From assembly GCA_949282275.1 (NCBI GenBank), contig CASDOO010000019.1, positions 44,739 to 108,738 on the forward strand: DNA of 64,000 nucleotides. The letters are read 5' to 3'. The position numbers were made by a program, and so were the translations under genes. The DNA is from an uncultured Bacillota bacterium. Lineage in GTDB: Bacteria; Bacillota_I; Bacilli_A; RFN20; CAG-288. This document shows, in pieces, positions 2,058 to 56,758 of the stretch. Each line of letters starts with the position of its first letter. Position 1 is the first letter of the stretch. The notes beneath the pieces are model-generated. The model was not told the DNA's origin and did no database searches. It was given only the letters and a program-made list of their open reading frames with translations.

Positions 2058-4085
2058 CTAGAGGGCGAGATACTTCTGGCGGATGTCGGCGTTTTCGTCG
2101 CGGAGAGCCTGGAATTCGGAAGCAAGCTTCGCCTCGTAGGCTTCCTTCTTCGCCTTCTTGTCGGCAAGACCCTGCTCGTACTTGGCCTTTTCCTCGGCCG
2201 TCATGGCAGCGATCCTGTTGGCAAGCTCCTCTTCCTTGGCCTTCTTCATGGCCGCCTTCTTCTCGTCGCTGGCCTTCTTCTTCTCGGCAGCGACTCTTTC
2301 CTTCTCGGCCTTGTCGGCCTCAAGCTTCTGGAGCTCTTCCTCGTAGTTGAGGTTCTTCTTCTCGCAGCGGGCCTTCAGTTCCTGCTTCTGGGCTTCCCAG
2401 GAGTCGCGGATGGCCTGCTCTTCCTCAAGCTGGAGACGGACCTTGGCCGGGACATATTCCTCGCCCTTGGAAAGGGCAACGGCCTTCTGGTCTTCCTCGA
2501 TGGCCTTGTGGTCCAAGTCGGAGAACTTCTCGACGCCCATGAAGACCATGAGGATGAGGATGCCAAGGTAGCAGATCGTCTCGCCGCCGATGAAGACCCA
2601 CTTGAGACCTTCTCGGAGAGGATCGTTGCCGGCAAGATCGGCCGGATTATAGTTGGTTGCGGTCAGGACAGCATTGAGGATACCCGTGGCAATGCCGGTC
2701 ATGCCGGCCATGATGGCACCGTAGATCGTCATCGTCAGACCATCGGTACGGACGCCCTTGACCGCTTCCTGGTGATCGAGGACATCGGCAAGGAGAGCCA
2801 GGGAGATGTACATGGCCGGGGTGGAACCCAAGGCCTTGATGACGAAGGAAGCCGTGACACAAACGAAGTTATCCGGGGCGATGAAGCCGATGCAACCGCC
2901 GATGGTGGCAAGGATGGCACCGAAGAGAATGGAACGGCCCTTGCCGATCTTGTTGGCAAGAGGCCAGACGATGACCATGCCAAGAGCGGTCGGGATGGCA
3001 CCGATGATGGAGAGTGTGCCCTGGAAACGTCCGCCAATGACGGAAGAATAGACACCGCCATCGCTAAACCAGGACTGGCAGTAGTAGGTCTGGGAGACGT
3101 TCTTGAGCATGCCGCCCAGTTGATAGAGGAAGAAGAAGCCCATCATGATCCACCAGAACCTGTCGGAGGCGCAGATCTTGAACTGCTCCTTGACGGGAAC
3201 GGCCTTCTTCTTGCTTTCGAGCTGGGCCTCGCCCTCGGCCTTCAAAGAGAAGGATTCCTCGGTGATTCTCTCGCGGGTGAAGTAGTATTCGACAAGGGCT
3301 CCGATGATGGTAATGACGATGAGGGCGATGATGAAGACGCGCCAAGCATTGAAGGAAGGCTCGGCATTGACGACGGCAGTGTAGTTGTCGTATTGGTCAA
3401 GCTTGTCGGCGGGAATTTCCACACCATTGGCATCAAAGTATGTCTCGTTGAAGAGGAAGCCGATGAAGAAGGGAAGGACCATGGACGTAAGGCCCATGGC
3501 GGCAAGGGCCGTGGCGTTGGAGATGGTGGCAAGGAGGGACCTGTCCTTGGAGTTACGGGTGGAGAGGTTGATCAGGGCCGAATGGTTGGTGAAGTAGAAG
3601 GGATAGGCAACGGCAAACCAGAGGTTGTAACCGATGGCAAATAGGACGAAGGTTCCCATTGTCGGGGCACCTTCCATCAGGTTCGCATAATCTGGATTCT
3701 CTTTGAATCCAATCGGCGTAAAGATAAACAGGAAGAGAAGGGCAAGGATTGAAAGGGGAATGGAGAGGAGGATAAGAGGCCTGGCCTTGCCGGCCCTCGT
3801 CCTGCTGTGGTCCATGAGACGTCCGACGAGGATGTTTCCAAGGACGACGAAGATGACGGAGATGACAGGAAGAAGGGTCAGATAGAGACCTGTAATTCCG
3901 AGGACATCCGTCATGTAGCGGTTAAGATAGGACGAAAGGATAGAATTCGAGAGAAGGGCGAGGGTGGGCCCGATGAAGTAGCCGAGGCCACCTTCGGGGA
4001 AGATCTTCACGTTTGCGGATTTGACTTTGGTAGACAACAGCGGATTGTCGAAGACGCTTTTCTTCTGCTTTGCTGCTTCAGCCAT
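2058..4085 (-). CDS. GPH/MelB-type glycoside-pentoside-hexuronide:cation symporter with long charged C-terminal tail
   Basis: 675-aa ORF with GGAGGAAA upstream of the ATG. The N-terminal ~510 aa are polytopic and resemble MelB/YicJ-type carriers (FPEGGLGYFIGPTLALLSNSILSSYLNRYMTDVLG...). The last ~165 aa are K/E/A-rich. Confidence 0.85.
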   Translation of the reverse strand: MAEAAKQKKSVFDNPLLSTKVKSANVKIFPEGGLGYFIGPTLALLSNSILSSYLNRYMTDVLGITGLYLTLLPVISVIFVVLGNILVGRLMDHSRTRAGKARPLILLSIPLSILALLFLFIFTPIGFKENPDYANLMEGAPTMGTFVLFAIGYNLWFAVAYPFYFTNHSALINLSTRNSKDRSLLATISNATALAAMGLTSMVLPFFIGFLFNETYFDANGVEIPADKLDQYDNYTAVVNAEPSFNAWRVFIIALIVITIIGALVEYYFTRERITEESFSLKAEGEAQLESKKKAVPVKEQFKICASDRFWWIMMGFFFLYQLGGMLKNVSQTYYCQSWFSDGGVYSSVIGGRFQGTLSIIGAIPTALGMVIVWPLANKIGKGRSILFGAILATIGGCIGFIAPDNFVCVTASFVIKALGSTPAMYISLALLADVLDHQEAVKGVRTDGLTMTIYGAIMAGMTGIATGILNAVLTATNYNPADLAGNDPLREGLKWVFIGGETICYLGILILMVFMGVEKFSDLDHKAIEEDQKAVALSKGEEYVPAKVRLQLEEEQAIRDSWEAQKQELKARCEKKNLNYEEELQKLEADKAEKERVAAEKKKASDEKKAAMKKAKEEELANRIAAMTAEEKAKYEQGLADKKAKKEAYEAKLASEFQALRDENADIRQKYLAL

Positions 4086-4113
4086 GCCATTTCCTCCTTT
4101 CCTTGTGGTTTAC

Positions 4114-4126
4114 ATCGCTTTCCATA
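4114..4126. promoter_or_regulatory. copy 1 of exact 13-bp repeat ATCGCTTTCCATA (cre/LacI-like core) in the transporter 5' region
   Basis: Seen directly. It lies 29-41 nt upstream of the transporter ATG (4085). The surrounding TTACATCGCTTTCC matches 11/14 of the cre consensus TGWAANCGNTNWCA. Confidence 0.4.
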
Positions 4127-4282
4127 AAGCGGTTACAATGTATTTTAAAACGACTGCCTTCGATATGCCATCATTTTTCCTAGATTGCAAAAAAAACTTC
4201 AGAACTGGTCGATATTGCCGTTTCGACACACCGACCAAACGGAAAAAAAGACAAAAAGACAAAGGGAAAAATCCTTCTTGCA

Positions 4283-4295
4283 ATCGCTTTCCATA
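4283..4295. promoter_or_regulatory. copy 2 of exact 13-bp repeat ATCGCTTTCCATA upstream of the DeoR gene
   Basis: Seen directly. The surrounding TGCAATCGCTTTCC matches 12/14 of the cre consensus. It lies 34-46 nt upstream of the DeoR ATG (4329). Confidence 0.4.
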
Positions 4296-4328
4296 GAAGG
4301 GATAATATCGAAAAAAACGGAGGCCGAA

Positions 4329-5090
4329 ATGGACAGCAGGAACATGTTTTCGTCGGAGCGCTTCAAGCTCATCGCCGACTATCTCAAGGAAAACAACAGG
4401 GCGACGGTCGAAGAGCTGAGCAAGGTCCTCTACGTCTCCCTTGCCACGGTCCGAAGGGACCTTGCGGAGATGAGTAAGCTTGGCCTCATCCAGAGAACCC
4501 ATGGCGGCGCGGTCTTCCTGGATTCCTCGAACGAGGTCAACATCTTCGTCCGTATCGAAAAGAATGCCACAGACAAGGAAAAGACGGTTTCCCTTGCCCT
4601 TCCCAAGCTTCCGGAGTTCAATTCCGTCTTCATCGACAATTCCTCGACCTGTCTTGCCCTTGCCGAGCGGATGGACTTCTCCTACAAGACGATCATCACA
4701 AACGGTCTCCAGATCGCCGTCAAGCTTTCCAACAAGAACGGCGTCAACGTGATTTTCCTTGGCGGAAACATCCAGTACAATTCCTATTCCACCGACGGCT
4801 CCCTGACGACGGAGATGATGGGCAAGTTCCATGTCGACCTGATGCTCTCCTCTGCCGCCGGGATAAGGCTTGACGGATCCTACGAGACGACGGTCGAATG
4901 CATGCAGGTCAAGAGGGAGGCCTTCAAGAGGGCGGACAAGCGCTATCTCCTTGTCGACAAGAACAAGTTCCAGAATTCCTTCGTCTATCGCGTCGAGGGA
5001 CTTGAGAGCTACGACGGCATCTTCACCAATGCCAGCGACGAGTTCATCGCCCCCTATCTGGAAAAGGGTTACAGGATCCACAATAGGTAA
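4329..5090 (+). CDS. DeoR-family transcriptional regulator (candidate rhamnose-locus repressor)
   Basis: Track ORF 4185..5090. I prefer the ATG at 4329, preceded by GGAGG. N-terminal HTH (ATVEELSKVLYVSLATVRRDLAEMSKLGLIQRTHGGA) and a DeoR C-terminal sugar-phosphate-sensor-like region. Confidence 0.85.
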   Translation: MDSRNMFSSERFKLIADYLKENNRATVEELSKVLYVSLATVRRDLAEMSKLGLIQRTHGGAVFLDSSNEVNIFVRIEKNATDKEKTVSLALPKLPEFNSVFIDNSSTCLALAERMDFSYKTIITNGLQIAVKLSNKNGVNVIFLGGNIQYNSYSTDGSLTTEMMGKFHVDLMLSSAAGIRLDGSYETTVECMQVKREAFKRADKRYLLVDKNKFQNSFVYRVEGLESYDGIFTNASDEFIAPYLEKGYRIHNR

Positions 5091-5106
5091 CAAGACAAGG
5101 GACAAC

Positions 5107-5141
5107 AAAAGGGGAAGGCCGTTTGACCTTCCCCAATTTTT
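5107..5141. terminator. bidirectional terminator between the DeoR gene and the rhamnosidase gene
   Basis: AAAA-GGGGAAGG-ccgtttga-CCTTCCCC-AATTTTT, with a U-tract available on both strands. Confidence 0.7.
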
Positions 5142-5142
5142 A

Positions 5143-7695
<2,553 letters not shown>

Positions 7696-8281: not shown

Positions 8282-11200
8282 TTAGTTCTGCTCCTTTTTG
8301 TCCAACACGTAGCAGAGAGCAAGACCGGCAGTGGAAGCGGCAGCAAGGGTGAAGGAAACGGCAACGATAGCAATCAATGCCGATTCCCAAGCCGGCGTGA
8401 TACGACGGGTGCTGATGTTCTTGATGGCCGTCTGGGCAAAGGCATAAAGCTGATACTTCATGCAATCCCTGGCAGCCTCGGCGAGAGTATTGTCCTTGGA
8501 GAGGACCTCGGGGGAGAGATAACTCCACGTCTTGTCAACACCGCCCTGTCCCTGATTGAGATGGGCATCATTAGCACTGAAGTCGGCCATCATGGTGACG
8601 GTGGCCAAGGCGCAGCCTTCGGGGTTGAAGTACCACTTGTTGTTCATCATGTCGGTCGTAGAAAGGCCCTTGAAGTCCCATTCGCCACGGATAATGTTCT
8701 TGTTGAACTCGACATAGTGAGAAACGTTGGTCGGTCCCATACGGTTGAAGGCGATCATGTAGCCGAGAGCGCCACCTTCTTCAAAGGAGCCTTGGAATGC
8801 TCTCAGTTCGGTTTCCCTGGCCTTCTGTTCAGTCATATAGGCGGAGACACCGGATCTGTTGTATTCTTGATCGTTGAATCCAATGTGCTTAGGGCCGACA
8901 AGGAGTCCCTTCTCGCGAGTCGCCTTAAGGAATTCGGCGCCCCAGATGTTGGTCAACATCTCGTCTTCGGACATGTATTCGACGTTACGGCCGTTATAAG
9001 GATTCCTGTGGACATTCAAGGCCGCTGCCCAGACGTTATAGACCCCGGCCCAAAGTCCGAAGTTACCAAGGGCACGGCCCCAGCGATAGGCAAGCTGTGG
9101 ATTGAAGGAGGAACCAGCAAGGGTCGGAGAATGGATATTGTCCTTGAAGCTATAAGCTTCCGATTCAGGATCGACATAGTAGGTTTCCTCGGGATCCTCG
9201 ATCTTCTGGTTGCCAATGGTGACACCGTTGAATCCGGCAGGACCATCGTACTGCTTGACAACAGGGTTTCCGATGTTGGAAAGCTGATCGGCCTGGTTTC
9301 CGCCGTGGGCGATGGCACCGAGGGCTTCTTCGGCAGGAATCTGATTGACGTAGTCTTCCCAGAAGGGATTGTTGATGTCGTTGACAGCATCGCCGGGCAT
9401 GGTTTCCCATGTGAGTCCCTTGTCGATACCATCCATGTTGGAGACGGGCTCGTCATCCTTAACCTCATATTGCTGATTGCGAAGGTTCTTCAGCCATTCA
9501 TCCTTCTTGGGGGAATCGGCAATGGCAAAACCCTTTCCGTCATTGATGGTGTTGAAGTTCTTCGGATAGGTACCATCCCAATCTTGACGGGAGAGATAGT
9601 CGATTTGATCTTCTTCGGAGAGCCAGTAGTTGATGTCCGTCGTCTGGAGCTGGTTCTTGATCTCCGTGCCGTTCTTGGCCTTGCCGAAGGTCGTGTAGTC
9701 GACAGAGCCTTCACGGATGCCGTTCCAGGCAAAGGTGGAACCTTCCGTTCCCTCGACATCATAGCCCTGATGGGCAAGGACGTTGTTGACGGCCTCATGG
9801 GCGCCGTTTCCAAGGGCGAAGACATACTCGCCACCATCGAGGATATAGGTGCCATATCCATTTGTATCATAAGAAGCCAGATACTTTGTCGGGAGAGAAA
9901 TCTTCACATCTTGGTACTGACCAGGTTCGATCGGTTTGGTCTTGGCAGAATTGAGGAACTGGATGGCGCTCTTTTCGACGCCGTTCTCACGGTCATAGTC
10001 CGTATAAGGGACGTTGACGAAGAGTTCGGTGCGGAAGCAACCCTTCTTGTCCGATTTGTTGGTGACACGGATAGTTGCCTCGATCTTACCCTCAACGCTC
10101 AGGTCGACCTTGACATCAAGAAGTTCTTCCGTGTAGTCCAAATAGCTCTGGCCATAACCGAAGGTATAGCAAACCTCCTGGTCATAATTCCAGTTGCCAT
10201 CGGAAGCATAGACACCGGCGGTGGAAGTCGCTCCGGAATTCGTGTTGGCAATGGAATCGTAATAGCGGGTCTCGTAGTAGTTGTAGCCCGTATAGATGCC
10301 CTCGGCCTCGACGTAATACATACCGCCGTTATAGGTCGCCGATCCACCAAAAGATCCAGCTCCCTCATTGCCAATCTCGACGCCAGGCCATCTCGTGTCC
10401 TCGAAGTCGCAGACGCTGAGGTAATCGGAATACATATCGCCGCCGAAGTTCATCATGGAAGGCGAGCTGGTGGAATCGGTGGCATAGGTGTCGGCAAGGG
10501 CACCCGTGGCATTTTCTTCGCCGGCGAGCACCTTGACGATACCCGTATATTGATAGTCGTTGGGAAGACCGATGTAGGCAATACCATCGACTTCATGTGC
10601 ACCACCCTTAACAATCGGGCCAAGTTCGAATTGGCAAGATGTGCTCAAAAGGACGATGACCGGCTTTCCGGTGGCCTTTGCAGCATCGATGACGGCCAAT
10701 TCATCCGGCGAGAAAGCGAAGGGATTCTGGTCAAGCGGATTGCCTTCGGAATCCGTCGTCGCTCCAGCCTTGAAGGTCGTTCCTTCGCCGCCCGGACGAT
10801 TGAATGTGACGATGTTGACATCACCCGTCAGAGAGGAAGCCCAACTAGAACTAGCGGTACCGAATCCTTCTTGCGTAAACTTGGAAGGATTGACTTCGCG
10901 AATCTGGAAGGTGTCATATGCCGGAGCGCTGGTGTTGGGATAGGCAGGCTTGAAGCTCGGTCCGCCCCATCCGGAGGACTCAATAAGCTGTTCCTCATTA
11001 ATTTCCGTATAAATTCCCTTCAGCGTCGGATCGAGGGTGAAGCCACCGTCCTCCAGGGCGCCGACAAGATCGACGGCATCCTTATTTCCGGCCTGGGACA
11101 TGCCACGATAGGAATTATAGGAAGCATTGCCCCAGAGGTTGATTTTGGCCTTAGAGGCAAGAGGAAGGGCGTTGTTGTCGTTCTTAAGAATCGCCGTGCC

Positions 11201-11443
11201 ATCGATACCTTCCTGGACAGAGACAGCCTTAAGTTCGACCATCAAATCCTCGGCCTTCGTGTAGTCGGAAGTAAACCTCGGTTCGCTTGAAATCGTCTCG
11301 TAGGAAGAGGTTCCCAAAGCGGCATCGACTTGGGTTCGCCACTGATCGGCAAGTCCCATACCCATGGTAGCCAGGACGGCAAGGGAGAAGGTCGTTGCAG
11401 CCACGCCACGGAAGACAGGGACAGTCTTCTTGTTGAAAATCAT
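8282..11443 (-). CDS. glycoside hydrolase family 3 (beta-glucosidase-like), N- and C-terminal hydrophobic anchors (paralogue 1)
   Basis: Track ORF 8282..11506. I prefer the ATG at 11443 with GGAGGG upstream (MIFNKKTVPVF...). GH3-like motifs KHIGFNDQEYNR and GLSTTDMM. C-terminal TM ALIAIVAVSFTLAAASTAGLALCYVL followed by DKKEQN. Confidence 0.85.
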   Translation of the reverse strand: MIFNKKTVPVFRGVAATTFSLAVLATMGMGLADQWRTQVDAALGTSSYETISSEPRFTSDYTKAEDLMVELKAVSVQEGIDGTAILKNDNNALPLASKAKINLWGNASYNSYRGMSQAGNKDAVDLVGALEDGGFTLDPTLKGIYTEINEEQLIESSGWGGPSFKPAYPNTSAPAYDTFQIREVNPSKFTQEGFGTASSSWASSLTGDVNIVTFNRPGGEGTTFKAGATTDSEGNPLDQNPFAFSPDELAVIDAAKATGKPVIVLLSTSCQFELGPIVKGGAHEVDGIAYIGLPNDYQYTGIVKVLAGEENATGALADTYATDSTSSPSMMNFGGDMYSDYLSVCDFEDTRWPGVEIGNEGAGSFGGSATYNGGMYYVEAEGIYTGYNYYETRYYDSIANTNSGATSTAGVYASDGNWNYDQEVCYTFGYGQSYLDYTEELLDVKVDLSVEGKIEATIRVTNKSDKKGCFRTELFVNVPYTDYDRENGVEKSAIQFLNSAKTKPIEPGQYQDVKISLPTKYLASYDTNGYGTYILDGGEYVFALGNGAHEAVNNVLAHQGYDVEGTEGSTFAWNGIREGSVDYTTFGKAKNGTEIKNQLQTTDINYWLSEEDQIDYLSRQDWDGTYPKNFNTINDGKGFAIADSPKKDEWLKNLRNQQYEVKDDEPVSNMDGIDKGLTWETMPGDAVNDINNPFWEDYVNQIPAEEALGAIAHGGNQADQLSNIGNPVVKQYDGPAGFNGVTIGNQKIEDPEETYYVDPESEAYSFKDNIHSPTLAGSSFNPQLAYRWGRALGNFGLWAGVYNVWAAALNVHRNPYNGRNVEYMSEDEMLTNIWGAEFLKATREKGLLVGPKHIGFNDQEYNRSGVSAYMTEQKARETELRAFQGSFEEGGALGYMIAFNRMGPTNVSHYVEFNKNIIRGEWDFKGLSTTDMMNNKWYFNPEGCALATVTMMADFSANDAHLNQGQGGVDKTWSYLSPEVLSKDNTLAEAARDCMKYQLYAFAQTAIKNISTRRITPAWESALIAIVAVSFTLAAASTAGLALCYVLDKKEQN

Positions 11444-11528
11444 ATTTCCCTCCTTGATAGGTATGATTTCATGTCTTGGGCGCTTGGTATTTTCCATCGT
11501 TCCCACAGGAATTCCGGCGCTAGCAGTT

Positions 11529-11542
11529 TACAAGCGCTTTCA
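11529..11542. promoter_or_regulatory. cre-like palindrome TACAAGCGCTTTCA upstream of GH3 paralogue 1
   Basis: 12/14 match to TGWAANCGNTNWCA, about 90 nt upstream of the ATG at 11443. Confidence 0.35.
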
Positions 11543-11765
11543 AGACAATAACAAGGTATCATAATCCAAAGCCTTTTTGCTCTTTTTTTTGCAAGTTGAG
11601 AAAAAAGTCGATTATCAATCAAAACAAGCAACCATTTTGCGCATTTTCAATCATAAATAATCATGTTTTGCTTCTTTTATTTCTTAAATTGAAGAGTCCG
11701 TTTTTCTGTCTCCCTTCCAAATCCAGTAAAAGGCTTACAATTTCCATTCGGCATTTTCTCTCCCA

Positions 11766-11808
11766 TTGGAAAAGCCATCCCGGTCGGGGAGGATCCTTCC
11801 GGGATGGC
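11766..11808 (-). terminator. terminator after rhaD
   Basis: GCCATCCCGG...CCGGGATGGC 10-bp stem followed on the minus strand by TTTTCC. Confidence 0.65.
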
Positions 11809-11840
11809 AATCTCTGCTCCGAAGCAAACTGGGAGCCTAG

Positions 11841-12647
11841 CTAGATGATCTTCTTGTAGTCGACCTTGAAGGCGGCGGCAAGCTTCTTGAGCTGCTCGTC
11901 GGTGATGGACTGGCGGACGTGGTCCTGGGTGAGGAAGTAGATCTGGCTTGCCTTCTCGACAGTCTCGACAAGACCGAAGGCCTCATCGAGGTCATCGCCC
12001 ATGGCAAAGACGCCGTGCATGCCCCAGAAGACGACGCGGTAGTCGTGCGCCTTGAGAGCCGTGGCCTCGCCGATCTCGTTTCCGCCGCAGACCATCCAGG
12101 GAAGATAGCCCACGCCCTCGGGGAAGACGACGATGCATTCCGTCGACATGCGCCAAAGGGTCTTGGTGATCTCGTCCTCGTCCTCGGGAAGGACGTAGGT
12201 CAGGGCAAGGGCATGGGTCGCATGGCAGTGCATGACGACATGGTTCTTCGGATTGACGGCAAGACGGGCGATATGGTTCATCAAATGGGTCGGGAACTCG
12301 CTTGTCGGCCTTCCGCCATCCTCAAAGCCCCAGAGGAGCTCGGCAGAGTGGCCGTCCTTTCCGATGCGGACGATGCCGAGGTTGACTTCGGGCGCGACGT
12401 CGACGTTCTTGAAGTACTTTCCCGTGCCCGTCACGACGAAGACCCTTCCGATGAGGGGCGTGGCATCGAAGCCCAGCTGGAAGACGCGATGGGGTTCCTC
12501 GGGGAGGTAGTCCCGGTATTCCTCGGGATCGATGATGACGGAGATGTTGCCGCCGTTCCTTTCGTCCCAGCCCATGCGATACATGTTGCTGGCGCAGCGG
12601 ATGACCTCCCTGACGGTCGGAAGGTCGACGATCTTCATTTTGGACAT
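11841..12647 (-). CDS. rhaD: rhamnulose-1-phosphate aldolase (class II aldolase)
   Basis: 268 aa. MGWDERNGGNISV and HCHATH motifs typical of RhaD. Last gene of the rhaBAD order. Confidence 0.9.
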   Translation of the reverse strand: MSKMKIVDLPTVREVIRCASNMYRMGWDERNGGNISVIIDPEEYRDYLPEEPHRVFQLGFDATPLIGRVFVVTGTGKYFKNVDVAPEVNLGIVRIGKDGHSAELLWGFEDGGRPTSEFPTHLMNHIARLAVNPKNHVVMHCHATHALALTYVLPEDEDEITKTLWRMSTECIVVFPEGVGYLPWMVCGGNEIGEATALKAHDYRVVFWGMHGVFAMGDDLDEAFGLVETVEKASQIYFLTQDHVRQSITDEQLKKLAAAFKVDYKKII

Positions 12648-52432: not shown

Positions 52433-53726
52433 GCCCCTTGCCTACAGGATGCGTCCGAGGCTTCTTGCGGACGTCCTGGGCCAGAAGAAGATAAAGGCAT
52501 TCCTGAACAACCTCCTTGAGAACAAGGCTTTGGTCTCGATGATTTTCTATGGCCCTCCGGGAACGGGAAAGACGACCCTTGCCCAGGCCTTTGCCAATTC
52601 CTTCGATGCCTATTCCGTCCGCCTGAATGCGGTCCTGGACAACAAGAGCCAGATGCAGCAGGCCTTCGACGAGGCCATCCGCTTCAATCCCAGCATCGTC
52701 ATCATCGACGAAATCCACCGCCTGGACAAGGCCAAGCAGGATCTCCTCCTTCCCCACCTGGAGAACGGGGATTTCTATCTCATCGGCTGCACGACGGCAA
52801 ATCCGCTCATCTCCCTCAATCCCGCCATCCGCTCCAGGACGAGACTGTTGGAATCCGTTCCCCTTTCCAAGGAAGATGTCCTTGAAGGCCTCCATCGAGC
52901 CGTCAAGAGCAAGGAAGGACTCTCCGATTCCAGGACTTTCGATGAGGATGCCTTGTTTTATCTTGCTTCGATATCCTCTGGAGATCTCCGCTTTGCCTAC
53001 AATCAGCTTGAGGCTATCGCCCTGAGTTTTTCGAAAAGCCATCGCATCACGCTCGATGACGTCAAGGAAATCGCCATCGCCCCAAACTACCTGACCGACA
53101 AGGACGAGGACGAGCACTATGATACCGTCTCGGGACTGCAGAAATCGATTCGAGGAAGCGATGTCGACGCCGCCATCTACTACCTTGCCAAACTGCTCAA
53201 GGGCGGCGACCTGGAAGGCCTTATCCGCCGTCTTCTTGTCACGGCCTACGAGGACGTGGGCCTTGGAAATCCCCAGGCCGTCGATCGTTGCTACACGGCC
53301 TGTCTTGTCGCCAGGGAAGTCGGTCTTCCGGAAGCCATGATTCCGCTTGCCTTTGCCGTCTGCGACCTTGCCCTCTCCCCGAAATCCAGGGCGTCCTGTG
53401 AGGCCATCCACATGGCAAGCGACCTTATCGACTCCTCCCCGAGCCATGTCCGCAGCTACCTTCGATTGAAGACGACCGGAATTCCCAAGGAGGAGCAATA
53501 CGACTATGGCAATCCCGAAATCTGGTCCCATCTTGTCTATCTTCCCGAAGGCCTCGAGGGAACGCATTTCTTCCACGGCTGGGGAAACGGAAAATACGAA
53601 CGCGCCCTGATGGAACAGTACCAGCGTCTTTGCTCCCTTGCAAAGGTCACATCCGTCTCCGAAGCACGAAAGATCGTCGAGGAGGAAAGACGGAAAGGAA
53701 AGAACGAAAAGACCGGGGTCCGCTAA
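52422..53726 (+). CDS. rarA: replication-associated recombination protein A (AAA+ ATPase)
   Basis: ATG at 52422 overlaps the punA end by 11 nt. Walker A GPPGTGKTT, IIIDEIHR, and the C-terminal MgsA-type helical domain. 434 aa. The N-terminal part of track ORF 51942..53726 is rejected. Confidence 0.9.
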   Translation: MIDKPLAYRMRPRLLADVLGQKKIKAFLNNLLENKALVSMIFYGPPGTGKTTLAQAFANSFDAYSVRLNAVLDNKSQMQQAFDEAIRFNPSIVIIDEIHRLDKAKQDLLLPHLENGDFYLIGCTTANPLISLNPAIRSRTRLLESVPLSKEDVLEGLHRAVKSKEGLSDSRTFDEDALFYLASISSGDLRFAYNQLEAIALSFSKSHRITLDDVKEIAIAPNYLTDKDEDEHYDTVSGLQKSIRGSDVDAAIYYLAKLLKGGDLEGLIRRLLVTAYEDVGLGNPQAVDRCYTACLVAREVGLPEAMIPLAFAVCDLALSPKSRASCEAIHMASDLIDSSPSHVRSYLRLKTTGIPKEEQYDYGNPEIWSHLVYLPEGLEGTHFFHGWGNGKYERALMEQYQRLCSLAKVTSVSEARKIVEEERRKGKNEKTGVR

Positions 53727-53740
53727 TACCCCGGCTTTTT
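53713..53740 (+). terminator. terminator after rarA
   Basis: CCGGGGT-ccgctaat-ACCCCGG followed by CTTTTT. The stop codon lies in the loop. Confidence 0.7.
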
Positions 53741-53863
53741 CATTTCAGGTACACCATTTGAAACAATGAAAGGTGGTCGAATGAGCGCTTTGCAAAGGGT
53801 CCGATAATCGGGAACCGTCTCTTTCAATCGCCCAAATCAACCGACCATGCTTTTAGACAAATC

Positions 53864-54289
53864 TCATCCGTGTTTCTTCTTCTGCCGGCAAATTTCCTTC
53901 AGGTCGTCGATTGCCACTTCCGTGTCAAGCGTATGGAACATGAAGTAATTCGTATTCATCGTATCAAAAGGCGCCTGTTTGTAAATTCTTGCGCTTTCCT
54001 CACCGGTATAGAAATGCCAATATCGATAGAGATATCCCATCCAGAAAAGGACTTCTTTGGAAATGTTTTCTCTTTTTGCCACCAGTTTTTCTTTATGGAC
54101 GGCAATCAACTCTTCGTATAGATATTCCTCCCCGGCCCACTGGAGCCGATTGTATTCGGAGTCGAGGGCTTTGGCCAAATCGCTTTCCATAAAGGTCTTT
54201 ACAAGGCTTTCCGGACTATATTGGCTATCGGCAAACAACGCGAACAGCCTTCCTTGTATATCGCACAATTTCAGGGCAATAGGATTCAT
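53864..54289 (-). CDS. small helical protein coupled to the HTH-DUF3990 gene (DUF3791-like by recollection)
   Basis: 141 aa. Its ATG overlaps the upstream TGA (ATGA). C-terminal ...NYFMFHTLDTEVAIDDLKEI resembles the DUF3791 signature I remember. Lies in the AT-rich islet. Confidence 0.6.
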   Translation of the reverse strand: MNPIALKLCDIQGRLFALFADSQYSPESLVKTFMESDLAKALDSEYNRLQWAGEEYLYEELIAVHKEKLVAKRENISKEVLFWMGYLYRYWHFYTGEESARIYKQAPFDTMNTNYFMFHTLDTEVAIDDLKEICRQKKKHG

Positions 54290-55161
54290 AGAAGCTCTCC
54301 TTTTTGCGCCGCTGCAAGAATCTCATCGAAATAGCGTCCCTCGCGGCGATGGTCTTTGCAAATCGCGTTGGCAATATCGATTCCCTTTTTCCTGTTCTGC
54401 TCGCTGACTCTCTTAAGGACTTTCTTTTCGAAGTAGGAAACCGGCACTTCCTTCTCGATGCGAATCGCTTTGCAGGCTTTTTCCGTGAGCGCAACATATT
54501 GTTTGCCAAGTCCCAAAGCGGACAAGCTTCCTACCAATGCGGCGTCCGTGATATTTTCCTGGAAGAAATTGTCGATGACGAAGAACATCCTGTCATTGGC
54601 AATACTTCCGATCACAATGTCCTTATTCGTGGTCATGGCTTTGTATTTCTCGTACAGCGGCGTGCCTTTGATTCCTTCCATCTTGCCGCGATGAAACGCC
54701 ACCACCATCGCCCAATCGATGTTCGCCGGGATTTCCGCAACATCCAGTCCCTCCAAGGCAATCGATACGATATAAAATCTCGAGTCCTCGAAATCGCACA
54801 CGAGCGTGAGAGCTTGCTCAGGGGCCGTCCCCATATAGAATCCTTTCCCGAAATCGCACCGTTCACGGCTGATAGGCTTGATCGGTCCGACAATCCCGCT
54901 TTTGGAACCATGATACAAAACAAGCCGGCTTTCGGTTTCCAAGCCCTTGACCGCCTTTCCAATTCCGTCAAGGATCATTTCATACACCGGGATGTCGTAT
55001 TGTTCGCAAATTTCCAATAGCTTTTCCTGGGCAAGGCGAGTCGGCTTGGTATGCCCGTTTTCCCAGCGGTTGATCGTGGCAAATCCGACACTCAGCTTTT
55101 CCGCCATCTCCTTTTGGCTTAATTTCGCGTACTGCCGAATCTCTTTAAGCAATTCTTTCAT
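54286..55161 (-). CDS. XRE-type HTH fused to a DUF3990-like domain with PARP-like H-Y motifs
   Basis: 291 aa. N-terminal HTH (LSQKEMAEKLSVGFATINRWENGHTKP). Then LVLYHGSKSG (H84) and FGKGFYMG (Y109), which mirror the PARP HGS...GKGIYFA motifs. Later IGSIANDRMF. Confidence 0.7.
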   Translation of the reverse strand: MKELLKEIRQYAKLSQKEMAEKLSVGFATINRWENGHTKPTRLAQEKLLEICEQYDIPVYEMILDGIGKAVKGLETESRLVLYHGSKSGIVGPIKPISRERCDFGKGFYMGTAPEQALTLVCDFEDSRFYIVSIALEGLDVAEIPANIDWAMVVAFHRGKMEGIKGTPLYEKYKAMTTNKDIVIGSIANDRMFFVIDNFFQENITDAALVGSLSALGLGKQYVALTEKACKAIRIEKEVPVSYFEKKVLKRVSEQNRKKGIDIANAICKDHRREGRYFDEILAAAQKGELL

Positions 55162-55302
55162 AATTCAAATATAACATTTGTAATGATTTTAATGTATCGA
55201 ATGTCATATTTATTATCAATAAATTCTTTCAGAATATTGTTTTCATGCAAATTCGTTGTAAATTCTACGTCATTGCATGAATTTGACAATGGATTAAACA
55301 AC

Positions 55303-56048
55303 ATGGATGCATATAAAAAGCTTGTCGAGTTGCGTTGCTTTACAAGAAACGAACTTGCAAAGCGGCTTGGCTCCGCCGCAAAGGCAGACTGGCACATAAG
55401 AACGTTTTTGGAAAAAGGCTACATTGAACGAATACACCGTGATTTTTATGCCGTCATGAGTCTGGAAACCGATCAGCCAATACCAAATCGCTTTCAGATT
55501 GCATCCAAGTCCGCGTCGGACGCATGCGTTTCCCATCATAGTGCCTTCGAAAACTATAGCTATGCCAACCAGGTATTTTACGCGGTGTATTTTGCAACGA
55601 AAAGCAAGTACGTTCTTTCTCCTATGACGGGCTCTCCTATTGTCCAATCCGTTATCGCGGAGATGATGGCATCCTTGAGACGGAAAGCGGCGTTCGAGTC
55701 ACGACCTTGGAACGGACGGTAATCGATATCATTGCCGATTGCGAAAAAATCGGCGCCATCGAAGAACTGCTTCGTTGCATCCAGCTTATTCCTTCTCTTT
55801 CTTCCAAGGGTTTGCTTGCCGCCTTAGAAATGCATGGCTCTGGCAGGCTTTACCAAAAGACAGGCTATATCCTGGAATTCTACAAAGAGGAATTCAATCT
55901 TCCGGATTCCTTTTTCGAGGAATGCGAAAGACATCTTCCCAATTGCAAAACCTACTTCAGTACGGAAAAGAGAGGATTCGGATTCCTATACCATAATCGC
56001 TGGAAGATTTATGGTCCAAGAAACCTAGAGAGTTGGATTGATAACTGA
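55303..56048 (+). pseudogene. AbiEi-family (type IV TA antitoxin / transcriptional regulator) gene, frameshifted near 55598-55612
   Basis: Two track ORFs (55183..55722, 55707..56048). The upstream frame gives MDAYKKLVELRCFTRNELAKRLG...SHHSAFENYSYANQVFYAVYFATKSK. Another frame reads through VRSFSYDGLSYCPIRYRGDDGILETESGVRVTTLERTVIDIIADCEKIG. Joined, this makes about 248 aa typical of AbiEi. Confidence 0.6.
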
Positions 56049-56155
56049 TGGCCAACCTTGTTTCCTTTTTCAGATTGTTCCAATAGAAAATGAGTTATTT
56101 TGTCAAAGACAAAAGCTCGTTTCTTTCCTGAAGTATCGTTCGATTGCCAGTCCGC

Positions 56156-56758
56156 CTAGAACCGATATCCCGTGTTCAGCCTGGCATTCATCACCTTGTA
56201 GAATCCCGGCACCTTCCTCGTCAGGAAGAGGAAGAGAAGGTATCCAAGGATCGAGATAGCGACAAACTCCCCGAGGAAGATCCATCCGAACTGGACACCA
56301 AAGTAGACTGCCCGACTGACGCCTTCCGCCGGGCCGATGATGAAGGTGAATTCGGCCGAAAGGATCAGTCCGTTTGTCAGGCAGGGAAGAAGACTGGAGA
56401 CGAAGAGGCTTCTTGTCATCGGCATAAGAAGACAGGCGATCAAGGTCGCAAGGCTTCCGAAGATTATGTCCAAAGGCCCCAAGAAGCCCGAGGTGATGGA
56501 ATAGATGTTGGAAAGGGCACAGCCAATCGTCAGGCCGATGGCGTAGTTGGGATTGAAGAAGCACAGAAGCATCAGGAATTCGCTGATCCGGCACTGGAAA
56601 GAGCCATAGGACATGAAGTAGAAGGCATAGGTCAAGGCAACGTAGAGCGCAGCGATGATGGCATTGGCGGCGATGTCCTTGGTCGACATCCGGAAACACT
56701 TCGCATAGGTCGAGAAGAATCCTTCCCTTTTCGTTATCTCGGATTTGCTTTCGTTCAT
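56156..56758 (-). CDS. queT: QueT-family queuosine-precursor transporter
   Basis: 200 aa. TKDIAANAIIAALYVALTY...YGSFQCRISEFLMLLCFFNPNYAIGLTIGCALSN matches my recollection of QueT (COG4708). GGGGG lies 8 nt upstream of the ATG. Confidence 0.75.
   Translation of the reverse strand: MNESKSEITKREGFFSTYAKCFRMSTKDIAANAIIAALYVALTYAFYFMSYGSFQCRISEFLMLLCFFNPNYAIGLTIGCALSNIYSITSGFLGPLDIIFGSLATLIACLLMPMTRSLFVSSLLPCLTNGLILSAEFTFIIGPAEGVSRAVYFGVQFGWIFLGEFVAISILGYLLFLFLTRKVPGFYKVMNARLNTGYRF

Follow-up and report, generated by a model that had tools for sequence, protein, structure and literature searches.

The stretch of DNA considered here, the window, is 64,000 nucleotides long and comes from an uncultured Bacillota bacterium (GenBank assembly GCA_949282275.1, contig CASDOO010000019.1, positions 44,739 to 108,738 of the forward strand). 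Our main concern is a pair of minus-strand genes within it, encoding a 291-aa protein, in which an XRE-type helix-turn-helix (HTH) is fused to a DUF3990 domain of the ADP-ribosyltransferase (ART) clan, and a 141-aa protein of the DUF3791 type. We read the pair as an autoregulated ART-fold toxin that would be restrained by its co-translated partner, and give this reading a probability of about 0.55. The cassette type itself was already known, being catalogued as a candidate in PADLOC; new here are the operator and the autorepression it points to, the movable character of the HTH, and the apparent third catalytic residue, Q221.

The list of open reading frames (ORFs) gives the two genes in that order, the large-gene stop TGA and the small-gene start ATG sharing 4 nt (ATGA) at the junction ...GGAGAGCTTCTATGAATCCT, an overlap already seen in the initial annotation, which was made from the letters alone. 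The features of the two genes are as follows:

54286..55161, minus strand: large gene, encoding the XRE-HTH plus DUF3990 (ART-clan) protein of 291 aa (ORF, Pfam).
54946..55161, minus strand: N-terminal XRE helix-turn-helix, residues 1-72, the presumed autorepressor module (Pfam HTH_3, Foldseek, predicted local distance difference test score, or pLDDT, of 90-96).
54460..54921, minus strand: DUF3990 core, residues 81-234, with the H84/Y109/Q221 triad and the invariant D103, G105 and W150 (Pfam, alignments, AlphaFold2, Foldseek).
54289..54435, minus strand: C-terminal helical extension, residues 243-291, with a conserved RRxGxYFDEI (AlphaFold2 helices at 243-270 and 278-286, alignment consensus).
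53864..54289, minus strand: small gene, encoding the DUF3791-type, PDC-M42B-like partner of 141 aa, the putative antitoxin or immunity protein (Pfam, PADLOC, pairing).
54297..54300, minus strand: GGAG Shine-Dalgarno sequence of the small gene, within the 3' end of the large gene and 7 nt 5' of the ATG (also at the same position in related loci).

Pfam places HTH_3 at residues 5-59 of the large protein (E=3.4e-10) and DUF3990 (PF13151) at residues 81-234 (E=8.1e-29; 100.7 bits against a cut-off of 32.2; model positions 2-151/152), so that both domain names in the initial annotation hold. The residue numbers it gave for H84, S86, Y109 and the IGSIANDRMF block are exact, the three blocks being L82-Y83-H84-G85-S86, D103-F104-G105-K106-G107-F108-Y109 and I184-G185-S186-I187-A188-N189-D190-R191-M192-F193. 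The HTH part is matched by Foldseek, with probability 1.0, to the HTH structures of C-proteins, SinR and DdrO. The large protein has 5,718 homologues at E<=1e-5, and a search of residues 70-291 against 1.84 billion representative proteins gave 998 relatives at E<=1e-3. Among 61 of these relatives, at 29-58% identity, the sole invariant positions are H84, D103, G105, Y109 and Q221. When the alignment was enlarged by core-only relatives, Treponema and Collinsella proteins and viral copies, all at 19-35% identity, H84, G85, D103, G105, F108, Y109, W150 and Q221 were still invariant, and the invariance of these residues spans Bacillota, Spirochaetota, Actinomycetota and viral copies over 19-58% identity. 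H84 and Y109, the two residues on whose conservation the initial annotation had relied, therefore hold down to 19% identity. The C-terminal extension is limited to the PDC-M42A-type subfamily, and core-only relatives of the PDC-M13 type are without it.

In the classification of Aravind, the H-Y-[EDQ] clade of ARTs carries motif I, Hx[ST], on strand 1, then a tyrosine, and then E, D or Q on a later strand, and a review of ART families places DUF3990 among the members of the Pfam ADP-ribosyl clan (both PMC7955679); the corresponding motifs of the PARPs are HGS, YFA and YNE (PMC7955679, Table 1). All three elements can be recognized in the large protein. H84-G85-S86 ends a predicted strand (80-86), with S86 at least 90% conserved; Y109 of FGKGFY lies in a predicted strand (109-111); and Q221 opens a third (221-224, KQYVAL). 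Since Q221 is invariant at the strand where PARPs carry their catalytic glutamate (motif YNE), the family would be H-Y-Q, with Q221 as the third catalytic position, equivalent by position to PARP E988. The fold and active site, with H84-Y109-Q221 as an H-Y-Q triad of the H-Y-[EDQ] clade, are thus supported, and the large protein is quite likely an NAD-utilizing ART-fold enzyme. The initial annotation had likened its motifs to those of the PARP-type H-Y-E enzymes; the H and Y motifs and the clan stand, and the third residue has to be changed to Q.

Structure prediction with AlphaFold2 gave a pLDDT of 84 for the full-length large protein and 84.2 for the DUF3990 domain alone, and in the domain model H84, Y109 and Q221 all lie in beta-strands. 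In Foldseek searches of the BFVD database the domain model matches several proteins named "PolyVal ADP-ribosyltransferase" (E 1e-3 to 5e-2, probability 0.72-1.0, template-modelling (TM) score 0.3-0.5) as well as a PARP-like protein of an iridovirus. The list is headed by what is probably a phage homologue (E=7e-10), along with four further matches below 1e-3, all to uncharacterized proteins. A relaxed Pfam scan of 61 diverse members gave, besides DUF3990 itself, a single ART-clan signal, a faint ART-PolyVal match (E ~0.05) in two of them. The grounds for assigning the ART fold are the Pfam clan, the motifs and the predicted phage ART-PolyVal structures, with the model-based structural part weaker than the sequence part.

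The small protein shows DUF3791 (PF12668) at residues 102-137 (E=1.8e-7; 31.5 bits against a cut-off of 25; model positions 25-60 alone matched), a family to which the initial annotation had related it tentatively and which 12 of 14 diverse partners also match. It matches PDC-M42B in PADLOC (E=4.2e-10, residues 9-130), and has 2,849 homologues. Few of its residues are invariant (G13, F16, W83, G85, H119), it has no enzyme-like or membrane features, and profile searches of Pfam and of solved structures turned up no relative beyond DUF3791. Because either half of it, N-terminal or C-terminal, is similar to the ~75-aa DUF3791-like proteins of PDC-M13, at a marginal E of 4e-4 to 1e-3, the partner may be a tandem of two DUF3791-like units.

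The pairing was surveyed in 80 reference-genome loci whose large protein is 58-84% identical to that of the window. The small gene lies directly downstream in 78, and the contigs of the remaining two stop 7 and 17 nt past the large gene, leaving 78 out of 78 testable loci. A survey centred on the partner found an HTH-DUF3990 gene upstream in seven out of seven distinct places, and the co-occurrence expected of other genomes is thereby borne out. Stop and start overlap in 54 of the 78 loci (31 with a 4-nt and 23 with a 1-nt overlap), and the internal GGAG is recurrent. The same partner accompanies DUF3990 proteins of ~213 aa that have no HTH (E=7e-52 to the partner hidden Markov model (HMM), plus PDC-M42B matches). 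Three single chains, P0319, P0304 and P0331, join the DUF3990 region to the C-terminal half of the partner, at large-protein residues ~229, 253 and 199 respectively, and P0319 retains the H, Y and Q residues. We do not take these fusions as Rosetta-stone evidence, their junctions being differing in-frame deletions; they may be pseudogenes or chimeric assemblies.

The promoter region of the operon contains three elements:

55214..55219, minus strand: -35-like hexamer TTGATA of the operon promoter (promoter scan; aligns with the conserved ATTGACA of 66 unique related upstream regions).
55191..55196, minus strand: -10-like hexamer TACATT, family consensus TATAAT (promoter scan, upstream alignment).
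55170..55208, minus strand: predicted 39-bp operator TATGACA-N25-TGTTATA, consensus TATAACA-N25/26-TGTTATA (inverted-repeat search, family comparison).

The operator consensus is present, with at most one mismatch in total, upstream of 78 of 81 HTH-fused genes, that of the window included, and is exact in 66 of them; the spacer is 25 or 26 nt in every case. The other 1.49 Mb of the same loci contain 16 occurrences, or 0.0013 per 120 nt, and the same motif scan did not find the operator at HTH-less loci. An alignment of the 66 unique sequences, anchored at the left arm, has its information content concentrated in ATTGACA (-35), the left arm itself, TATAAT (-10) and AATGTTATA, and the positions between these elements carry little. 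With its left arm in the spacer between -35 and -10 and its right arm immediately 3' of the -10 hexamer, the operator brackets the -10, so that a repressor bound there would keep RNA polymerase out. The conservation of this operator at the promoters of the HTH-fused loci themselves argues for the HTH being an autorepressor, which on such comparative grounds we regard as highly probable. The half-sites are ~33 bp apart, which suggests a repressor with two HTHs held far from one another. Earlier the choice had been left between an autoregulated toxin and an enzyme that modifies nucleic acid; the conserved operator favours the former, since it accounts for the HTH and there is no need for a DNA-guided nucleic-acid-modifying enzyme.

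Between the right arm of the operator and the ATG of the large gene the window has just 8 nt (55162-55169, TTTGAATT), in which no Shine-Dalgarno sequence is visible; most related loci have GGTGG or GGAG ahead of that ATG. At one type of HTH-less DUF3990 locus (L084, positions 5930-6000, and also L085-L089) the upstream region carries half-site-like repeats, ATGTTAT(G/A) (CATATGTTATGATTTAAATGTTCAAATGTTATAC), which might mean that a paralogue with an HTH regulates such loci in trans.

Comparison of arrangements across the family indicates that the HTH is a movable module, found on the enzyme, on the partner, as a separate gene or not at all. Out of 114 representatives with a full core, 78 lack an N-terminal extension, a recognizable HTH is present in 18, and the remaining 18 carry some other extension of 60-117 residues before the core. 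In Collinsella an HTH_3 is at the C-terminus of the partner; in Treponema the pair has no HTH; and on a Lactobacillus crispatus plasmid a separate HTH gene follows one of two DUF3990 plus DUF3791-like pairs. Such a distribution over varying components would be expected of an enzyme and partner that act together in a complex, with an operon in need of a repressor for which either component can serve as carrier. Upstream of the DUF3990 gene of Collinsella aerofaciens (L092, positions 5940-6009) is a 20-nt perfect inverted repeat (ATATCACCTCAGTGATAGTT / AACTATCACTGAGGTGATAT), to all appearance from the sequence a different operator for the relocated regulator. The two L. crispatus pairs (L090, positions 5989-6752 and 10897-11977, on a 179-kb plasmid) are core-only, lie less than 5 kb apart and belong to a run of small hypothetical genes adjoining dnaN, possibly a phage-plasmid-like region. 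At another locus a separate 73-aa HTH_3 gene stands directly upstream of an HTH-DUF3990 plus partner operon (L110, positions 5558-5779), and would be a second regulator there.

On this comparative evidence the pair has the marks of a type II-like toxin-antitoxin (TA) module: two small genes, conserved pairing and autoregulation. In the mechanism we propose, the XRE HTH would bind the inverted repeat around the -10 of its own promoter and repress the operon, a step strongly supported by the comparison of sequences. The DUF3990 domain would bind NAD+ and either mono-ADP-ribosylate an essential target or hydrolyse NAD+, arresting growth, both the chemistry and the toxicity being putative; that the enzyme is the toxic component seems somewhat better than an even chance. 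The partner would bind the enzyme and hold it inactive, and, more speculatively, the enzyme would be set free when the partner is lost or when an event such as phage infection acts as trigger; a role against phages is conceivable, if on the doubtful side. In relatives the functions of enzyme, partner and regulator would be distributed differently, by analogy with three-part TA systems of the omega-epsilon-zeta type.

Several points weigh against this reading. In classical type II TA systems the first gene, when it bears an HTH, is the antitoxin and not the toxin. With the full-length model, Foldseek recovered HTH structures alone from the PDB and nothing on the enzyme domain; the domain model gave no significant match to any solved ART structure in the PDB, the best being 7rb4, a diphtheria-toxin homologue (E=0.029, probability 0.66, TM 0.34); and searches of PDB chains with the protein, a diverse DUF3990 profile and a partner profile returned HTH matches or none. 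The ADP-ribosyl-clan similarity foreseen in the initial annotation thus holds for the Pfam clan and the predicted PolyVal ARTs and is weak for solved structures. Literature searches found no functional study of the DUF3990 or DUF3791 families, in keeping with the earlier description of the module as uncharacterized, although it is already catalogued as PDC-M42A/B; and the PDC-M42 match is to a catalogue entry and not to a characterized system, PDC systems being candidates. In the window copy the -35, the -10 and the left arm are all degenerate when set beside the family consensus, and the large gene has no visible Shine-Dalgarno sequence; this copy may be weakly expressed or in early decay, with both ORFs and all invariant residues intact. 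In roughly ten annotated neighbourhoods that we sampled, most of the surroundings are housekeeping genes, and the flanks vary by locus (ffh, metH, dnaN, V-ATPase, rpsF-ssb-rpsR). Finally, in one hybrid OPERA metagenome assembly (L086, positions 6644-7475) the partner is split into three ORFs, with an upstream DUF3990 identical to that of intact loci. This may be natural loss of the partner or, equally, a long-read frameshift artefact; if the loss is real, the enzyme is not lethal alone, contrary to a simple toxin-antitoxin relation.

The alternative that survives best, itself unlikely, is that the pair is strictly a defence system, in which the partner, as sensor or adaptor, would switch the ART on when infection occurs and the enzyme would modify phage or host nucleic acid or protein with abortive effect. 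PDC-M42, PDC-M13 and PDC-M10 are among 145 phage defence candidates recognized from their embedding in BREX, DISARM and type I restriction-modification (RM) loci (bioRxiv 10.1101/2024.01.29.577857). Some pairs adjoin defence genes directly: Cas9/Csn2 in one case (L113), ToxN/HEPN/NUDIX genes in another (L091), and hsdMS at L117 and perhaps L121. ART-based defences, CmdTAC and DarTG among them, do exist (PMC11618068). These points have to be set against the candidate status of the PDC entries, the housekeeping genes at most sampled neighbourhoods, and the phage-borne pairs, which fit addiction or superinfection exclusion equally well.

A more improbable alternative is that the roles are reversed, the HTH-DUF3990 protein being an antitoxin and repressor, possibly an enzymatic one of a type VII-like kind, that inactivates a 141-aa toxin by ADP-ribosylation or otherwise. 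The layout is canonical for a type II antitoxin, in that the first gene bears the HTH, the two genes share 4 nt and the operator is autoregulatory; enzymatic antitoxins such as DarG and MntA are known, and the assembly with a broken partner has an intact DUF3990. The family comparison speaks the other way: Rhs proteins have DUF3990 as their toxin tip, an HTH of any kind is missing from about two thirds of the family, the HTH is on the partner in Collinsella, no orphan large genes were seen, and the partner, with its few invariant residues, is neither enzyme-like nor membrane-associated in its features. Least probable is a regulator outside any conflict, in which an inert or NAD+/ADP-ribose-sensing DUF3990 would tune DNA binding by the HTH with the partner as co-regulator and no toxin involved. 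In its favour, an HTH plus ligand-binding domain is a typical one-component layout, the operator is strongly conserved, and E-to-Q change weakens classical ART catalysis (bioRxiv 10.64898/2026.05.07.723553). Against it, the operator is confined to the operon's own promoter over the background given above, HTH-less forms dominate the family, Rhs-toxin fusions exist, the distribution is patchy and mobile with the window pair in an AT-rich islet, and VopU shows an H-Y-Q triad to be catalytically competent.

Returning to the restrained-toxin reading, the pair appears to be a self-contained, horizontally mobile two-gene operon that would act in the manner of a toxin-antitoxin or abortive-infection module. 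Searches with DUF3990 and the partner gave thousands of clusters at 90% identity, and one metagenome-assembled genome (MAG) has two copies (L043, L053). Phage and plasmid records are few: tblastn found one phage record and three plasmid or megaplasmid records, and IMG/VR has 15 viral contigs, in one group of which the pair sits between the large terminase and a ParB-methyltransferase. We accordingly rejected plasmids or phages as the main vehicle, and consider the family mostly chromosomal. Strains differ in the gene that directly follows the pair at the rpsF-ssb-rpsR locus (L117 and L121 as compared with L115/L116/L118-L120). In L117 (positions 3474-6144) a type I RM module, HsdM and HsdS, takes this place, and in L121 (positions 3474-3719) the downstream gene has the same start as in L117, the contig breaking off too early for its identity to show. 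This spot may be a small integration hotspot for defence genes.

In the window the pair lies in an AT-rich islet, with a GC content of 0.39-0.49 across ~53500-56250 against 0.53-0.59 in the flanks, between rarA/MgsA (52437-53726, plus strand) and QueT (56156-56758, minus strand), both identified with Pfam and both as the initial annotation had them. One further feature closes the operon:

53712..53735, no strand assigned: GC-rich hairpin with a T-run on both strands, a probable bidirectional terminator common to the pair and convergent rarA (promoter/terminator scan).

It lies between the small gene and rarA, overlaps the last rarA codons and is probably shared by the two. On the other side is an AbiEi pseudogene (55303-56048, plus strand), whose N- and C-terminal parts (55303-55722 and 55707-56048) are in different frames with a break near 55610-55720: ORF 55183-55722 corresponds to positions 1-103 of the PADLOC AbiEi model (E=2e-36) and ORF 55707-56048 to positions 136-242 (E=1e-35). 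No AbiEii toxin gene was found in the window before queT, in the ORF list or in Pfam and PADLOC scans, and the AbiE system there is thus not intact. The AbiEi gene had been called decayed, as its two frames confirm, and taken as a telling neighbour, which it is not in general: AbiEi-like sequence is near the pair in only one of the 80 reference loci (L043, ~34% identity), and we therefore take the neighbour as incidental. A rarA homologue is likewise near the pair in one (L061), and a functional tie of AbiEi, rarA or queT to the pair was rejected, none of the three being a general neighbour. In a 99%-identical relative (L081) the same 179-aa AbiEi_4 N-terminal ORF adjoins the pair.

DUF3990 cassettes are among the commonest "candidate defence" matches in gut and rumen genomes, PDC-M13 having 3,324 matches in one rumen MAG survey (PMC13356809), and the family can now be described as a concrete system, with the triad H84/Y109/Q221, an obligate partner, a 39-bp operator and natural variants in which the regulator has been relocated. 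Should the enzyme prove active, H-Y-Q ART families would number two, VopU being the other, and this one would be the first to belong to a bacterial conflict system. Time and again the toxins of the ART clan (DarT, CmdT, ParT, RES and Tre are examples) have brought to light new DNA, RNA and protein chemistry, together with new antiviral logic. More tentatively, and as a whole rather doubtful, DUF3990 and its DUF3791-type partners would make up new and extremely abundant NAD-dependent H-Y-Q ART toxin systems of gut and rumen bacteria, with a novel antitoxin fold (two DUF3791-like units, in one chain or as two small proteins), a regulator that can sit on the toxin and bind half-sites three helical turns apart, and abortive infection or defence by way of a target new for ARTs.

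Among catalogued systems the nearest is PDC-M42. The large protein matches PDC-M42A models (E=1.1e-12 and 2.1e-7) and also PDC-M13A/B and PDC-M10A, and the window pair shows the adjacency, on one strand, of PDC-M42 gene A and gene B (~138 aa). In the PDC-M42A model of 280 positions the alignment starts at position 65, as an N-terminal extension would lead one to expect. The PDC-M42 model scores are moderate for the window pair, as against 3e-51 for a Treponema partner. PDC-M42 was described as a three-gene cassette, FAM_00403>>FAM_03189>>FAM_00360, with FAM_00403 common to PDC-M42, PDC-M13 and PDC-M10 (bioRxiv 10.1101/2024.01.29.577857), whereas the third gene, FAM_00360, is absent from the window, where the two genes are followed by the terminator and convergent rarA.

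With the H-Y-[EDQ] clade at large (PARP, diphtheria toxin/ExoA, ART-PolyVal) DUF3990 shares hhhYHGS, FGKGFY and an invariant polar residue that opens a later strand. It departs from the norm of the clade in that this third residue is invariably Q, rather than E or D, in the extra invariant D103 and W150, and in its helical insertions. Precedent for such a triad comes from VopU, a type III secretion system effector of Vibrio parahaemolyticus, a mono-ART with an H-Y-Q triad that the substitutions H7A, Y38A and Q141A each inactivate, and from E-to-Q variants of diphtheria toxin and PARP1, which keep NAD-glycohydrolase or mono-ART activity (bioRxiv 10.64898/2026.05.07.723553, the variants as reviewed there). 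VopU has the same non-canonical triad in similar motifs (GYHGTS...GRGFYIA), and experiments with it show that H-Y-Q can sustain mono-ADP-ribosylation and an NAD-linked stress response. It differs from the pair: it is secreted, its action as an effector is directed at eukaryotes, and it has neither an HTH nor a DUF3791 partner. A homologue of VopU on E. coli plasmid pO55 (L109, positions 5218-5655, minus strand; NC_013942, 53217-53654) is 145 aa long, is annotated as hypothetical and adjoins an IS3 element; its sequence (MYFIGYHGTS...GRGFYIA) has no obvious C-terminal Q-strand and may be truncated. It matches Exotox-A_cataly (2.4e-4) and PARP (0.044) weakly and has no DUF3990 HMM match, with an hhalign probability of 1.5% against the DUF3990 alignment. 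Membership of VopU in DUF3990 was rejected on these grounds, and the precedent that VopU offers is one of mechanism and not of kinship.

Also comparable are DarTG, ParST, RES-Xre and CmdTAC, where an ART-clan toxin is encoded beside its cognate neutralizer. In DarTG the toxin gene comes first, and in RES-Xre and ParST an Xre-type HTH takes part in regulation. The pair differs from all four in its DUF3791-type helical partner, which is neither a macrodomain nor an Xre antitoxin, and in having its HTH fused to the putative toxin; general Pfam, NCBIfam and PADLOC scans gave no match to DarT (DUF4433), RES, ParT or a macrodomain, and the pair is thus not a DarTG system. The remaining comparison is with the Rhs toxins of type VI secretion systems, where DUF3990 is found as the C-terminal tip (PMC4524185, PMC10763514, PMC12165300). 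Unlike the pair, these proteins are secreted inter-bacterial toxins, and what they have in common with it, as seen in Serratia Rhs5 and Enterobacter bugandensis RhsA, is the same Pfam domain as the toxin tip and an immunity gene downstream.

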